This document shows positions 58,061 to 64,000 of a DNA stretch of 64,000 nucleotides, in pieces. Position numbers and translations under genes: made by a program. The stretch lies in the NCBI RefSeq assembly GCF_988243305.1, contig NZ_OZ547136.1. One strand, written 5' to 3'. A model generated the notes under the pieces. That model searched no databases and was not told the DNA's origin. It was given only the letters and a program-made list of their open reading frames with translations. Position 1 is the first letter of the stretch; each line of letters opens with the position of its first letter.

Positions 58061-59293
58061 ATGTCGTCATTTGATTACCTGAAAACTGCCATCAAGCAAC
58101 AGGGCTGCACGCTACAGCAGGTAGCTGATGCCAGCGGTATGACCAAAGGGTATTTAAGCCAGTTACTGAATGCCAAAATCAAAAGCCCCAGCGCGCAAAA
58201 GCTGGAGGCGTTGCACCGTTTTTTGGGGCTTGAGTTTCCCCGACAGAAGAAAACCATTGGTGTCGTATTCGGTAAGTTCTACCCGCTGCATACCGGACAT
58301 ATCTACCTTATCCAGCGCGCCTGTAGCCAGGTTGACGAGCTGCATATCATTATGGGTTTTGACGATACCCGCGACCGCGCGTTGTTTGAAGACAGCGCCA
58401 TGTCGCAGCAGCCCACCGTGCCGGATCGTCTGCGCTGGTTATTGCAAACCTTTAAATATCAGAAAAATATCCGTATTCATGCTTTCAACGAAGAGGGTAT
58501 GGAGCCGTATCCGCACGGCTGGGATGTGTGGAGCTACGGCATCAAAAAGTTTATGGCTGAAAAGGGGATCCAGCCGGACCTGATCTACACCTCGGAAGAA
58601 GCCGATGCGCCACAGTATATGGAACATCTGGGGATCGAAACGGTGCTGGTCGATCCGAAACGCACCTTTATGAGTATCAGCGGTGCGCAGATCCGCGAAA
58701 ACCCGTTCCGCTACTGGGAATATATTCCCACCGAAGTGAAGCCGTTCTTTGTGCGTACCGTGGCGATCCTTGGCGGCGAGTCGAGCGGTAAATCCACCCT
58801 GGTAAACAAACTTGCTAATATCTTCAACACTACCAGTGCATGGGAATATGGTCGCGATTATGTCTTTTCACACCTTGGCGGTGATGAGATCGCATTGCAG
58901 TATTCCGACTACGATAAAATCGCGCTGGGACACGCTCAATACATTGATTTTGCAGTGAAATATGCCAATAAAGTGGCGTTTATCGACACTGATTTTGTCA
59001 CTACCCAGGCGTTCTGCAAAAAGTACGAAGGGCGGGAGCATCCGTTCGTGCAGGCGCTGATCGATGAATACCGTTTTGATCTGGTTATCTTGCTGGAGAA
59101 CAACACCCCGTGGGTGGCGGATGGTTTACGCAGCCTCGGCAGTTCGGTGGATCGCAAAGAGTTCCAGAACTTGCTGGTGGAGATGCTGGAAGAGAACAAT
59201 ATCGAATTTGTGCGGGTTGAAGAGGACGATTACGACAGCCGTTTCCTGCGCTGTGTGGAGCTGGTGCGGGAGATGATGGGCGAGCAGAGATAA
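58061..59293 (+). CDS. nadR: Trifunctional NAD biosynthesis / regulator protein NadR
   Basis: Start at MSSFDYLKTAIKQQGCTLQQVADASGMTKGYLSQLL (410 aa). Confidence 0.93.
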   Translation: MSSFDYLKTAIKQQGCTLQQVADASGMTKGYLSQLLNAKIKSPSAQKLEALHRFLGLEFPRQKKTIGVVFGKFYPLHTGHIYLIQRACSQVDELHIIMGFDDTRDRALFEDSAMSQQPTVPDRLRWLLQTFKYQKNIRIHAFNEEGMEPYPHGWDVWSYGIKKFMAEKGIQPDLIYTSEEADAPQYMEHLGIETVLVDPKRTFMSISGAQIRENPFRYWEYIPTEVKPFFVRTVAILGGESSGKSTLVNKLANIFNTTSAWEYGRDYVFSHLGGDEIALQYSDYDKIALGHAQYIDFAVKYANKVAFIDTDFVTTQAFCKKYEGREHPFVQALIDEYRFDLVILLENNTPWVADGLRSLGSSVDRKEFQNLLVEMLEENNIEFVRVEEDDYDSRFLRCVELVREMMGEQR

Positions 59294-59326
59294 CCGTGAC
59301 GAAACGGCTCAAAGGCGAGGTATAAA

Positions 59327-59480
59327 ATGAGTTTTTTTGATGAGTTGAAAACCTCTCTGGAAGAGGCTGTTGAGATTAGAAAGAACCTGCACGGGTGACC
59401 CACTACGAAATTGCGGATGCTAAGGCTATTCGTGAGCAACTTCATACTCCAACTGACCGGTTGCGTAGCCAGAATGCAAT
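59327..59480 (+). pseudogene. Frameshifted remnant of a small ORF (23-aa MSFFDELKTSLEEAVEIRKNLHG continuing out of frame as THYEIADAKAIREQLH...); possible decayed small HTH/antitoxin-like gene
   Basis: Good RBS and ATG at 59327, then a stop after 23 codons. A protein-like continuation lies in another frame. Family assignment is tentative; 3' extent is approximate. Confidence 0.3.
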
Positions 59481-59519
59481 CAAATCTGACAGTCTGCTTC
59501 GGCGCGCGCTTTGGTGTAT

Positions 59520-59711
59520 TTACCGGAGTAAATCAGCGTGCCGTGGAAAATTATGCGCAGCGCTTCTGCTGATTTGCGTACCTTCGCTGATGATAAGTCC
59601 TGCACTAGCGCGCTGCGCGTAATAGTCCGCCATCATGTCAATCGCAACGTCACCCGCACCGGCGCGGGAACGCGTCATCGGTGGCAGTACAAAACGGTTT
59701 ATTAATGGCAA
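59520..59711 (-). pseudogene. N-terminal fragment of an Old Yellow Enzyme / NemA-like NADH:flavin oxidoreductase gene (truncated)
   Basis: Translation ...NRFVLPPMTRSRAGAGDVAIDMMADYYAQRASAGLIISEGTQIS matches the conserved OYE N-terminus (…APLTR…YYRQRASAGLIISEATQIS…), then diverges to a stop after about 63 codons. Confidence 0.5.
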
Positions 59712-59759
59712 CGCATTCAGCGCATATTTAGCAAATTACGTAATGGGTCCCTTGCGCGG

Positions 59760-59972
59760 TTATTTGTACAGTTCGGCACTCATGGTGACGGTATTGCCCA
59801 TGCGAGCGCTGGTGATTTTGTATTCAGAGGCGTTCATCTCTTTCGCTTTCTGCGCAATAACTGCTTCCGCAGAATCCAGTGTTGTACCGGTTGCTGTCAC
59901 GCTTTGCGCCGATGCGTTAAACGCCGCGACAGAGAAAAGAGAAGCTGTAAAAATTGCGATGATCGTTTTCAT
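59760..59972 (-). CDS. DUF1471 (YdgH/BhsA/McbA-family) small periplasmic protein, about 70 aa
   Basis: ORF track 59760..60140. Start set at MKTIIAIFTASLFSVAAFNASA (signal peptide). C-terminal ...TVTMSAELYK is typical of the family. Confidence 0.75.
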   Translation of the reverse strand: MKTIIAIFTASLFSVAAFNASAQSVTATGTTLDSAEAVIAQKAKEMNASEYKITSARMGNTVTMSAELYK

Positions 59973-60129
59973 GTTTATATTCCAGAGTGTCTTAATTGTT
60001 TGGCGTTTATTAACGCGATGGGGAGAGAATACGCCTGCTGCCTGATAACATAAATGATACAAATGACAATAGACTATTCTGCTTTTGTTAATAATCAGAC
60101 GCCGGACGTTCCGACGCCTGTCGATTGCA

Positions 60130-60546
60130 TCAGGCAACAAAGTTGTCCTTCAGCGCCTTGAGACCATCCCGATAGATGCCGGTAAACAGCGCTTCGGCCT
60201 CTTCGTTCGTCACATTCACCGGGGTGAATTCACCGAACCATTCCACACGGGAAACCTGGCTGTCGGCGGTTTCATGAACGGTAATGGTGGAGAGGTAATC
60301 CACCACCGGGAACGGTGCCTGAATAATGGAATAGGTATAACTGCGTTGACGGTTATCAAACGCTTCCAGACGTTCAACCACAGTGCCGCCGTCAGAGGTT
60401 GTCAGCGAACGAACGCGACCGCCTTCTGTCACTACGCTTTTCGGGATGAACGGCAGCCAGTCTGGCAGCGCATCAAAGCCGCCCATCAATTGCCATACGG
60501 TGTCGGCAGAAGCCGGAATTTCGATCGATACAGTTGTTTTAGCCAT
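60130..60546 (-). CDS. SRPBCC (Bet v1-like / polyketide-cyclase-like) family protein, 138 aa
   Basis: MAKTTVSIEIPASADTVWQLMGGFDALPDWLP... has the N-terminal pattern typical of SRPBCC ligand-binding proteins. Confidence 0.65.
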   Translation of the reverse strand: MAKTTVSIEIPASADTVWQLMGGFDALPDWLPFIPKSVVTEGGRVRSLTTSDGGTVVERLEAFDNRQRSYTYSIIQAPFPVVDYLSTITVHETADSQVSRVEWFGEFTPVNVTNEEAEALFTGIYRDGLKALKDNFVA

Positions 60547-60571
60547 GATAATTTTCTCTTAATTTATAGGG

Positions 60572-61369
60572 TTACATTGTCAGGGTGTCGACGACGCCGC
60601 CATCGACGCGCAGGGCTGCCCCTGTGGTTGCCGAGGAAAGCGGTGACGCGAGATAAACCGCCAGATTCGCCACTTCTTCCACATCTGCCGCACGCTGGAT
60701 GATGGAGCTCGGACGTGAGGTTTTAACAAACTCATCGGCCTGTTCACGCGCACTGCGTCCCGATTGTGCAGCGGCATCCGCCAGCATCTCTTTCAGGCCA
60801 TCGGTAAAGGTTGGCCCTGGCAGAATGGCGTTGACGGTCACACCGGTCCCCGCCAGTCGTTTCGCCAGACCATGAGAGACCGCCAGATTCGCAGCTTTGG
60901 TGACGCCGTAGTTGATCATGTCGCCAGGAATTGCCACGCCGGATTCGGACGAGACAAAGATAATCCGCCCCCAGCCCTGTTCCGTCATGCCTGGCGCATA
61001 GTGACGCGCCAGACGAACGCCGGAGAGGACGTTGACGTTATAGAAGTGCATCCACTCATCATCCGGAACGCTAAAGAAATCTTTATCGTTAAAAATGCCC
61101 AGATTATTGACCAGCACATCAGCCGTTGGGACTGCAGCGATCAGCGCAGCCACGCCGTCTTCGGTGCTGAGATCGGCCACCACGCCACGCAGTGACGCCG
61201 TGGGAGTTTGTGCCGCAATCGCAGCCATGGCATCATCAACGCCGCGCTGTTTACGGCCGACGACAACCACCGTTGCGCCTGCTTTTGCCAGTCCGGCGGC
61301 GATACCCTGCCTAATGCCGGAGGTTGAGCCGCTGACCACCGCGACTTTACCTGTCAGATCCAGTTTCAT
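60572..61369 (-). CDS. Short-chain dehydrogenase/reductase (SDR), about 265 aa
   Basis: Start set at MKLDLTGKVAVVSGSTSGIRQGIA (Rossmann TGxxxGxG-type motif), 20 nt downstream of the AKR gene stop. Confidence 0.82.
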   Translation of the reverse strand: MKLDLTGKVAVVSGSTSGIRQGIAAGLAKAGATVVVVGRKQRGVDDAMAAIAAQTPTASLRGVVADLSTEDGVAALIAAVPTADVLVNNLGIFNDKDFFSVPDDEWMHFYNVNVLSGVRLARHYAPGMTEQGWGRIIFVSSESGVAIPGDMINYGVTKAANLAVSHGLAKRLAGTGVTVNAILPGPTFTDGLKEMLADAAAQSGRSAREQADEFVKTSRPSSIIQRAADVEEVANLAVYLASPLSSATTGAALRVDGGVVDTLTM

Positions 61370-61388
61370 CGTTTTCTCACCAGGTTGA

Positions 61389-62399
61389 TTAACGGGTCGG
61401 CAGCGGAGCGTTTTCCGCAACCAGATTTTGACGGCGCATTTCTGCCCAGAATTCAGCCGGAACAGGCGCATTCAGTGCAGCCAGATCTTCTGCCATACGG
61501 CCAGGACGGCTGGAGCCAGGAATAACCGCTGCAACGGCCGGGTTTGCCAGCGCGAACTGCAGCGCAGCTGCTTTAACGTTCACATTGAAACGTGTGGCAA
61601 TGGCGTTAATTTGCGCCACTTTCTGCTGGATGGCCGCAGAAGCTTTCTGATATTCAAAGTGCTCGCCGCCTGCCAGTACGCCAGAGCTGTACGGACCGCC
61701 CACAACAATATCCACGTTCTGTTCCAGTGCTTCTGGCATCAGGCGTTGCAGCGCACGTTCGTGATCCAGCAGGGAATAACGCCCCGCCAGCAGGAACGCA
61801 TCCGGCTTCGGTTCGTCCAGCGCCAGCGTCAGTTCGCAAGGTTCGACGCGATTCACACCCAGTCCCCAGGCTTTAATCACACCTTCGTCACGCAAACGCG
61901 TCAGCGCACGAAACGCACCGGTACGGGCTATGTTGAACTGTTCCAGCCAGCTGTCACCGTAGAAGTCCTGCGCCGGGTCGTGGATCCAGACAATATCCAG
62001 ACGATCTGTTTTCAGGCGTTTCAGGCTGTCTTCAATCGAGCGCAGCGTGGCGTCAGCAGAGTAGTCATTCAGAATTTTGTTTTTCAGGCCGTGTTCGAAC
62101 AGGCCACCTTTTTCACCGAAATCACGTTTTGCCGGATCTTCCATTTCGTCCAGCATGATGCGGCCGACTTTGCTGCTCAGAACGTATTCATCACGTGGAT
62201 ACTGAGACAGCGCTTCACCCATGCGGATTTCAGAAAGGCCAGAGCCGTACAGCGGCGCGGTATCAAAGTAACGCACGCCCAGGTTCCAGGCTTCGCTCAC
62301 GGTGGCGTGGGCCTCTTCTTCCGGAATGGCACGGAACATGTTGCCGAGTGGTGCGCCGCCTAAGCCAATTTTGCCGGGAAGTAAATTTTTGATGCTCAT
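61389..62399 (-). CDS. Aldo/keto reductase family oxidoreductase, 336 aa
   Basis: MSIKNLLPGKIGLGGAPLGNMF...YFDTAPLYGSGLSE...IHDP... are AKR signature segments. Confidence 0.85.
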   Translation of the reverse strand: MSIKNLLPGKIGLGGAPLGNMFRAIPEEEAHATVSEAWNLGVRYFDTAPLYGSGLSEIRMGEALSQYPRDEYVLSSKVGRIMLDEMEDPAKRDFGEKGGLFEHGLKNKILNDYSADATLRSIEDSLKRLKTDRLDIVWIHDPAQDFYGDSWLEQFNIARTGAFRALTRLRDEGVIKAWGLGVNRVEPCELTLALDEPKPDAFLLAGRYSLLDHERALQRLMPEALEQNVDIVVGGPYSSGVLAGGEHFEYQKASAAIQQKVAQINAIATRFNVNVKAAALQFALANPAVAAVIPGSSRPGRMAEDLAALNAPVPAEFWAEMRRQNLVAENAPLPTR

Positions 62400-62532
62400 A
62401 AGATGTCCTCAATTATTCGGTTTGGGTTAGGGCGTTTTTTTGCTATCGCCCTGTGACGTGGATCACAATACCTTGCGAGGTTGTGACTTGATAGGACATA
62501 ATTCGTCTGACTTAAGTCCTTTGAGGTCTAAC

Positions 62533-63420
62533 ATGATTGATTTACGCCAACTGAAGTACTTCGTGGTGGTCGCAGAAGAAGAGCACGTGGGACGCGCAGC
62601 CGAGCGATTACATATCTCGCAATCACCGCTGAGCCGCCAGATTGCACAACTGGAAGAACGACTGGGGCTGACGCTGTTTGAGCGTAATCAGCAGCGCATT
62701 CGCCTGACCGCTGATGGACAGACATTCCTTGCCGAAACACGTTCGTTGCTGACACACGCCAACCGCCTGGAGTCGTTAGGCAAACGCCTGGGACGGGGGG
62801 AAGATGGGGGCTTGTGTATTGGCTATATCGAAAACGCCATGCATTCCGGTGTACTTTCTACGGCGCTACGTACGTTACGTGTATCGCGTCCGAATGTGCA
62901 TATCGCTCTTTACAGCCAACCACCGGCTACCCAGATTGAAGGCCTGCGCCAGCGCAGTCTCGATTTTTCTCTGGTCGATACGCCGCCCACCGACAGCGAG
63001 CAGGATCTTGAATATATTCAGGTTCTGGATGATCGAATGTTGTTGGCCTTACCGCAAAATCATCCTCTGGCGCAGGAGGAAAACCTTGTCGCGTCACAAC
63101 TTGGCGATGAGCAGTGGATTGCGGTGATTCATAACGACGATGCGCATTTTCGCGATCATTTTGTCGCCGCCTGTGTTAACGCCGGGTTTAATCCTGATAT
63201 TCGCCTGGAAGCGGGTGAACCCCTCACGGCATTAGGTTTGGTCGCTGCGGGATTAGGTCTGGCCTTAATTCAACATAGTCTGCGTCATAATGCGCCGGAA
63301 GGGGTGGTATTACGTGAATTGCCGTGGATGAATTATTCAACGCAATTATGGGCAGCCTGGCATAAAGCCAACCAACGTCCGCTGGTTTCCCATTTCCGCC
63401 AGATTTTGCGCGGTGAATAA
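62533..63420 (+). CDS. LysR-family transcriptional regulator (divergent from the AKR-SDR genes), about 295 aa
   Basis: Start set at MIDLRQLKYFVVVAEEEHVGRAAERLHISQSPLSRQI (LysR HTH); ORF track extends to 62440. Confidence 0.85.
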   Translation: MIDLRQLKYFVVVAEEEHVGRAAERLHISQSPLSRQIAQLEERLGLTLFERNQQRIRLTADGQTFLAETRSLLTHANRLESLGKRLGRGEDGGLCIGYIENAMHSGVLSTALRTLRVSRPNVHIALYSQPPATQIEGLRQRSLDFSLVDTPPTDSEQDLEYIQVLDDRMLLALPQNHPLAQEENLVASQLGDEQWIAVIHNDDAHFRDHFVAACVNAGFNPDIRLEAGEPLTALGLVAAGLGLALIQHSLRHNAPEGVVLRELPWMNYSTQLWAAWHKANQRPLVSHFRQILRGE

Positions 63421-63479
63421 AACGTTAAGCGGGAACCATGAGTTCCCGCTTGATTTGAGATGTCAGTCCGCATCTGAGC

Positions 63480-63570
63480 TAATACGCTTAAAGAAAATTC
63501 TGGCTTTTCCGGGGACTAATCATTTAACTAATACCGGATGCGATGCTGGCGCGCCGCACCCGGCATTTTA
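63480..63570. repeat. REP-like palindromic sequence downstream of the LysR gene
   Basis: TACCGGATGCGATGCTGGCGCGCCGCACCCGGCAT resembles REP units; sits between convergent genes. Confidence 0.35.
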
Positions 63571-63574
63571 CGCA

Positions 63575-64000
63575 TTACTTCGCAATACGCTTGTACTTGA
63601 TACGCTTCGGCTCCAGCGCGTCTGCGCCCAGCGTGCGTTTTTTGTACTCTTCGTACTCGGTAAAGTTACCTTCGAAGAACTCAACTTTACCTTCATCCTG
63701 GTAGTCCAGGATGTGCGTGGCGATACGGTCGAGGAACCAACGGTCGTGCGAGATAACCATCGCACAGCCCGGGAACTCCAGCAGGGCGTTTTCCAGCGCG
63801 CGCAGGGTTTCGATATCCAGGTCGTTGGTTGGTTCGTCGAGCAGCAACATGTTGCCGCCAACTTGCAGCAGCTTCGCCAGATGCAGACGACCGCGCTCAC
63901 CGCCGGAAAGTTCGCCAACGCGTTTACCCTGATCAACCCCTTTAAAGTTAAAGCGGCCAACGTAGGCGCGGCTTGGCATCTCGGTGTTGCCGATCTTCAT
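63575..64000 (-). CDS. ettA: Energy-dependent translational throttle ABC-F ATPase EttA (YjjK), C-terminal part; 5' end outside window
   Basis: Translation ...VGELSGGERGRLHLAKLLQVGGNMLLLDEPTNDLDIETLRALENALLEFPGCAMVISHDRWFLDRIATHILDYQDEGKVEFFEGNFTEYEEYKKRTLGADALEPKRIKYKRIAK matches the recalled EttA C-terminus. Confidence 0.9.
   Translation of the reverse strand: MKIGNTEMPSRAYVGRFNFKGVDQGKRVGELSGGERGRLHLAKLLQVGGNMLLLDEPTNDLDIETLRALENALLEFPGCAMVISHDRWFLDRIATHILDYQDEGKVEFFEGNFTEYEEYKKRTLGADALEPKRIKYKRIAK

Follow-up and report, generated by a model that had tools for sequence, protein, structure and literature searches.

Three described systems are the closest counterparts of the genes discussed here, namely the HigB2/HigA2 toxin-antitoxin pair of Vibrio cholerae (PDB 5ja8, 5jaa, 5j9i), the nadS remnant of strain K-12 (RefSeq 'NadS family protein', NCBIfam NF041265) and the NemA/Old Yellow Enzyme (OYE) alkene reductases. 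HigB2/HigA2 is a type II module, and the intact Escherichia coli locus downstream of nadR likewise has the toxin gene first and the antitoxin gene, nadS, second. The N-terminal peptide 3-22 of V. cholerae HigA2 neutralises HigB2 on its own (PMC5416850). The literature on 'NadS' amounts to a sole mention, as an expressed, PGAP-annotated K-12 ORF in a PIRT-seq paper (PMC12350097); this ORF is the nadS remnant of K-12, which is longer than the one described below. Literature searches that combined nadR, ettA or yjjK with an island or with toxin-antitoxin systems found no papers.

The interval that we compare with these systems lies within a window of 64,000 nucleotides (the whole stretch of DNA that was analysed), in a region that is 100% identical to E. 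coli strain C4 (NZ_CP010121.1). The order of the genes is radA, nadR (end 59293), the scar interval, DUF1471, SRPBCC, SDR, AKR (-), LysR (+) and ettA (-). In C4, RefSeq/PGAP already annotates two pseudogenes in this interval: a 'NadS family protein; frameshifted; incomplete; missing C-terminus' (window 59327-59445) and a 'hypothetical protein; incomplete; missing C-terminus' (window 59559-59678); sister genomes call the latter 'oxidoreductase' or 'alkene reductase'. The pseudogene status of the nadS and OYE remnants is therefore known, the scar is a case of ordinary stepwise decay, and the finding is an ordinary one because both remnants are so marked in RefSeq. The comparison clarifies that NadS belongs to the HigA2 type of antitoxins and that ~12% of E. 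coli still carry its partner, a HigB2-type toxin. It shows, too, that the 4-kb oxidoreductase cluster was inserted into nadS, which it splits, with ends that can be placed exactly, and that the OYE of this cluster was lost independently in E. coli and Escherichia whittamii. The value of these results lies in a correct annotation and a worked example of stepwise pseudogene decay; they open no new question. The coordinates of the features are collected in Table 1.

Table 1. Features of the nadR-ettA interval, in window coordinates
Feature	Position	Strand	Basis or remark
3' end (~30 nt) of deleted HigB2-type RelE/ParE toxin gene	59294-59326	+	alignment with L003
nadS 5' remnant, nt 1-125 of the 285-nt gene	59327-59441	+	NF041265 profile, alignments with intact nadS, PGAP
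4,046-bp insert inside nadS	59442-63487	.	gene families, annotation, end of cluster homology at ~63451
55-bp filler between nadS breakpoint and OYE remnant	59442-59496	.	common to long alleles L013 and L016
OYE piece B, gene nt 861-931, 71 nt, (E)ALRIIFHGTLIYSGKYTKARAE, out of frame with piece A	59497-59567	-	98.6% identity to L023 9666-9736
4-bp microhomology (ttcg), secondary-deletion junction	59498-59501	.	overlap of alignments to L013/L016
OYE piece A, codons 1-58	59568-59741	-	gap-free alignment with L023 8806-8979; Pfam, NCBIfam
DUF1471 gene	59972-59760	-	first intact cluster gene beyond the scar
36-bp filler at the other end of the insert	63452-63487	.	no match in any compared locus
nadS 3' remnant, nt 242-285, 32 nt	63488-63519	+	window 63440-63600 aligned with L003 3215-3400

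The original prediction described a well-initiated plus-strand ORF of 23 codons with a protein-like continuation in another frame, and both are present. The ORF (59327-59398), which encodes MSFFDELKTSLEEAVEIRKNLHG, has a GAGG Shine-Dalgarno sequence 6 nt upstream and is composed of 17 native NadS residues followed by RKNLHG; the continuation is a GTG ORF (59395-59622) that starts (M/V)THYEIADAKAIREQL. After frame correction, the match to the NCBIfam model NF041265 (NadS) has E = 2.1e-14 and covers positions 1-45 of the 94 in the profile; the fragment scores 53.6 bits, below the curated cutoff of 60, and intact NadS 182.6 bits. Alignment with intact nadS reveals a 10-bp deletion at 59378/59379, which is the cause of the predicted frameshift and hence of the 23-codon ORF, and which leaves the native codons 27-42 in the other frame, where they read VTRYEIADxKAIREQL. 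Homology to nadS ends at 59441, that is, at nt 125 of 285; the HTH domain (PF01381), which spans residues 35-79 of intact NadS, is gone, nadS nt 126-241 being missing from the window. The resident gene nadS, which encodes a 94-aa antitoxin of the V. cholerae HigA2 type, thus has its 5' end in the 23-codon ORF. This ORF had been taken for a decayed gene of the island, a part of the prediction that fails: nadS is the resident gene downstream of nadR, and at least part of it is present in ~4,960 of the 5,426 complete E. coli genomes, the majority of these being island-free.

NadS is assigned to the HigA2 type because it matches the HTH domain of HigA-2 (E = 2e-6, residues 33-91) and the toxin of the intact E. 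coli locus (WP_001298496.1) matches V. cholerae HigB-2 (PDB 5ja8, 5jaa; E = 8e-16, residues 6-101). A PDB search with the N-terminal 42 residues of NadS returned nothing significant and no detectable similarity to the N-terminus of HigA2, and so NadS can only be presumed to bind its toxin in the manner of HigA2. Among the NCBIfam models, the closest relative of NadS is YiaG (NF007481; E = 1.6e-12; L003 3031-3315 and L024 9928-10218), which suggests that E. coli YiaG may be another solitary HigA2-like protein. In the intact E. coli locus (L003), the RelE/ParE toxin is annotated at 2697-3029 and nadS at 3031-3315, and window 59297-59441 aligns with L003 3001-3155. The synteny of nadS with nadR is kept in the window, where the preceding toxin gene is absent save for its last ~30 nt, following a deletion of ~394 bp. 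The 33 nt from the nadR stop to the nadS ATG, which hold this remnant, supply the nadS Shine-Dalgarno sequence.

The nadR-ettA spacer shows an allelic series of four forms. Form A consists of the RelE/ParE toxin gene (333 nt) followed by nadS (285 nt, 94 aa), as in L003; in form B, nadS is intact and the toxin absent (L005); in form C, the first 114 nt of nadS are fused to REP elements (K-12, L004); and form D is the island form represented by this window. The full toxin-nadS pair is found in 674 of the 5,426 complete E. coli genomes (~12%). The toxin deletion is identical in all island alleles and all K-12-type alleles; the break in K-12-type nadS lies at nt 114 instead of nt 125, so that this gene was truncated independently of the nadS in the window. 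The nadS remnant of K-12 and O157 encodes 55 aa, in an ORF that joins 38 native codons to REP-element sequence (L004 2034-2310; L102, L104, L105), and that of BL21-type island-free strains (sampled: BL21-AI) carries an ATG -> ATA change plus a 1-bp deletion. The spacer is thus a locus of repeated decay.

The minus-strand ORF (59711-59520; 63 codons) matches Pfam PF00724 (Oxidored_FMN) with E = 1e-7 and 32 bits (cutoff 27), covering only profile positions 12-65 of 342, and the NCBIfam N-ethylmaleimide reductase model with E = 6.9e-13. Both the OYE and the NadS matches are far beyond chance, so that each of the two fragments does resemble a known family, OYE in one case and a small protein in the other. 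The ~60 OYE residues that had been predicted are there, ending after ...EGTQIS (59568). The TTG at 59711, the start chosen by the ORF finder, is native OYE codon 11, and the homology begins upstream, at 59741. The start codon (59741-59739) is ACG, vs ATG in the intact gene, and codon 2 (59738-59736) is a TAA stop, vs TTA. An internal deletion of 686 bp (codons 59-286) joins piece A to piece B, and the 3' end is missing; altogether, 245 of the 1,098 nt remain, in two frames. The catalytic HGANGYL motif (the active-site His/Asn pair and the proton-donor Tyr; residues 183-189 in E69) lies within the 686-bp deletion, and the remnant has no complete ~340-residue TIM barrel in one ORF. The prediction of a truncated OYE/NemA-like fragment stands, but the simple divergence to a stop that it envisaged does not, being replaced by a mutated start, a stop at codon 2, the 686-bp deletion and the 3' truncation.

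Truncations and a frameshift of this kind could be produced by sequencing or assembly errors in genes that are really intact, and a possibly erroneous frameshift does divide related OYE genes in some draft or Logan assemblies (L007, L008). In this case, the probability of such an origin is practically nil: the 10-bp deletion, the 686-bp deletion and the start-codon change are found in 8 of the 8 sampled, independent short-form assemblies and far exceed homopolymer errors in size, and OYE remnants, each holding just 22-27% of the gene, are present in 482 of the 5,426 complete E. coli genomes. Assembly error was rejected because identical lesions recur across independent genomes, and we treat the lesions as real.

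No intact copy of the cluster OYE was found among the 5,426 complete E. coli RefSeq genomes, in which the maximum is 27% of the gene, and when the OYE fragment was searched against a protein database, the sole matches were short fragments and split ORFs. Intact copies were located via the neighbouring SRPBCC protein in species-representative genomes: the LysR gene and the AKR-SDR-SRPBCC-DUF1471-OYE series, with an intact 365-aa OYE, are present in a genome labelled E. coli E69 (CP089930.1, L023) and in Yokenella regensburgei. Window 59568-63451 is 97.7% identical to the DNA of E69, with 0 gaps over 3,884 bp. Comparison with relatives that carry intact versions, as envisaged at the outset, yielded the exact deletion points, with E69 serving for OYE and L003 for nadS. 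A 136-codon ORF on the plus strand (59635-60045), antisense to the OYE remnant and DUF1471, has no stop in E69 and E. whittamii either; conservation of the opposite-strand genes most likely produces it as an artefact.

The cluster occupies three chromosomal sites in Escherichia (window 59760-63451; L023 5096-9903; L024 5094-9258). In E69, it adjoins an aminoacetone-oxidase-family gene (apparently yhiN) and pitA, and in E. whittamii (L024), it lies between glyS and cspA-yiaG. Directly after the LysR stop, window 63427-63451 forms a hairpin with a perfect 10-bp stem (aagcgggaac catga gttcccgctt), which probably serves as the terminator of LysR. With this hairpin the conserved part of the cluster ends, the homology stopping at the same point, just past the hairpin (~63451), in all three sites. 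None of the three sites showed a mobility gene or terminal repeats. The E. whittamii OYE (L024 8803-9258) has an independent, in-frame internal deletion of 639 bp that leaves a 151-aa ORF; the cluster OYE has therefore been inactivated at least twice, with the other cluster genes intact.

The original prediction held that the scar may mark an insertion junction, and this is borne out by the position of the two parts of nadS, the 5' remnant on the nadR side and the 3' remnant beside ettA. The 3' remnant is 12 nt shorter than the corresponding part of the intact gene, ends with the native stop (63517-63519) and runs into the conserved nadS-ettA spacer. Because the nadS pieces flank 59442-63487, this segment is an insert that split nadS, replacing 116 bp (nt 126-241). 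It consists of filler, the OYE remnant, the DUF1471, SRPBCC, SDR and AKR (-) genes, LysR (+), the LysR terminator hairpin and a second filler, the DUF1471, SRPBCC, SDR, AKR and LysR genes being intact. The filler at the nadS breakpoint has no match in nadS, in the OYE gene or in the sequences that flank the cluster in Yokenella, E69 and E. whittamii. There is no integrase or transposase gene within the insert, and a repeat search across it found no direct or inverted repeat pairing its two ends and no target-site duplication; the target lost 116 bp rather than being duplicated. As there is no integrase or transposase, terminal repeat or target duplication, we infer from these sequence features that the insertion occurred by illegitimate recombination.

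The same arrangement could conceivably result from the opposite course of events, in which the island was ancestral at this site and island-free K-12-type E. coli lost it by deletion, the scar then being no insertion junction. K-12-type strains also have a truncated nadS, so that a history of deletion at the locus is real. This course is nevertheless extremely unlikely, given that intact nadS, with or without the toxin, is found at the island-free site and could not be regenerated from a split gene that is missing 116 bp. Furthermore, the K-12 nadS breaks at nt 114 rather than nt 125 and is followed by REP elements, with no island sequence, and the same cluster is found at two other Escherichia chromosomal sites. 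Insertion of the cluster into a resident nadS is the reading retained below.

The short form in the window is not the only form of the island. Long alleles were found among contigs that encode an identical DUF1471 protein. One of these (L016; 20 genomes) carries a GNAT acetyltransferase gene between the OYE and nadS remnants, with 727 bp extra, and the other (L013; 21 genomes) has a TauE-family exporter and a small winged-helix (wHTH) regulator at the 59498-59501 site, with 1,582 bp extra. Both long alleles are without the 10-bp nadS deletion, and their OYE piece B measures 129 nt vs 71 nt in the window. The extra DNA of L016 and L013 is flanked on one side by the counterpart of window 59294-59501 and on the other by that of window 59498-59758, and these two stretches overlap by 4 bp. 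By this comparison, the short form is derived from a long-type allele via a deletion between 4-bp repeats, a secondary deletion that took the long-form cargo along with 58 nt of OYE piece B. The expectation that the island once carried more genes is thereby supported, by the intact OYE in E69 and Yokenella and by the GNAT gene, or TauE plus wHTH, at 59498-59501. The alternative cargos share one spot between identical flanks (L013 6214-8268; L016 6214-7413), and the TauE cargo is bounded by an inverted repeat of 11-12 nt, AAGCGGAAGTT; the 59498-59501 spot may be a small cassette-like exchange site.

The lesions of the window are the same in all 8 sampled short-form alleles, and sister alleles have additional ones: in nadS, the ATG has become TTG or 1 bp is missing from the T-run of codons 3-4, and OYE shows a 6-bp indel. 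Divergence between alleles amounts to 2.6-3.4% plus indels in the scar and to 0.9-1.5%, almost free of indels, in the intact island genes, a pattern of relaxed constraint. An Rfam scan of 59000-60200 with E up to 1 found no RNA family, and a promoter and terminator scan of 59200-60150 found one promoter-like site and zero terminators, not above shuffled sequences. The gene-decay scar of the original prediction, with its truncated OYE and frameshifted ORF, is thus confirmed. The interval is very probably a non-functional junction scar left by successive deletions and one insertion at nadR-ettA, and a working protein is not expected from anything in 59327-59741.

The history of the locus can be reconstructed in six steps from the breakpoints, homologies and allele frequencies, which are read directly from the genomes; the order given to the second, third and fourth steps is a proposal, as is the loss of function. 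The ancestral state is nadR, the HigB2-type toxin gene, nadS and ettA, as it persists in 674/5,426 genomes. A deletion of ~394 bp would then have removed the toxin gene except for its last ~30 nt, sparing the ribosome-binding site of nadS; this loss is placed before the insertion of the island by parsimony, because island and K-12-type alleles share one toxin deletion. In the third step, a LysR-regulated AKR-SDR-SRPBCC-DUF1471-OYE segment of ~4 kb or larger would have entered nadS by illegitimate recombination, replacing nt 126-241. Subsequently, the OYE gene at the inner edge would have lost its start codon, 686 bp including HGANGYL and its 3' end, and gained the stop at codon 2. In the lineage of the window, a deletion between the 4-bp repeats next dropped the cargo that is retained in rare alleles, and the final 10-bp deletion frameshifted the nadS remnant.

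A different view of the 23-codon ORF is that it is a functional micro-gene, which would encode a peptide with a toxin-binding helix, active in anti-addiction against HigB2-type toxins, or have some other role. The Shine-Dalgarno sequence and ATG are both good and the first 17 codons native; peptide 3-22 of HigA2 is sufficient against HigB2 (PMC5416850); the toxin is a clear HigB2 homologue that circulates in 674/5,426 E. coli genomes; and the nadS remnant of K-12 is reported to be expressed (PMC12350097). Against this stand the inactivating lesions, which differ by lineage (the 10-bp frameshift; ATG -> TTG; the 1-bp deletion; the BL21-type ATG -> ATA plus 1-bp deletion), the N-terminal 42 residues of NadS, which are unlike the HigA2 N-terminus, so that the analogy is one of architecture only, and the mere 17 native residues that are left. 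Taken together, these points make a functional micro-gene of any kind very improbable. The specific proposal that the 17 native residues, translated from nadR read-through, would neutralise HigB2-type toxins as an anti-addiction peptide, by analogy with HigA2, is likewise very improbable; if true, toxin-free strains would hold a peptide against toxins carried by ~12% of E. coli. A decayed 5' end of nadS remains our interpretation of this ORF.

Compared with the nadS remnant of K-12, the remnant in the window has in common the site after nadR, the toxin deletion, the 33-nt leader with its Shine-Dalgarno sequence and the first 17 codons. The K-12 gene keeps 38 in-frame codons within its 55-aa ORF, whereas the ORF of the window is stopped at 23 codons by the 10-bp deletion; the nadS of the window is broken at nt 125 by the 4-kb insert, with its 3' end 4 kb off, and that of K-12 is fused to REP elements. 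The proteins of the intact E. coli locus are similar in length to V. cholerae HigB2 and HigA2 (toxin, 110 aa vs ~110 aa; NadS, 94 aa vs ~104 aa), and no similarity in sequence to HigA2 is detectable in the N-terminal stretch of NadS, the presumed toxin-binding part. Unlike the V. cholerae module, the window has lost the toxin but for ~30 nt, and its antitoxin is without the HTH domain and frameshifted after codon 17. With respect to the NemA/OYE alkene reductases (PF00724; NF007899), codons 1-58 of the remnant match the N-terminal beta-hairpin and the first barrel strands, and the intact E69 orthologue reaches 396 bits with the N-ethylmaleimide reductase model (cutoff 403). The OYE of the window is a paralogue distinct from nemA and, unlike the members of this family, has neither a start codon nor the HGANGYL motif.
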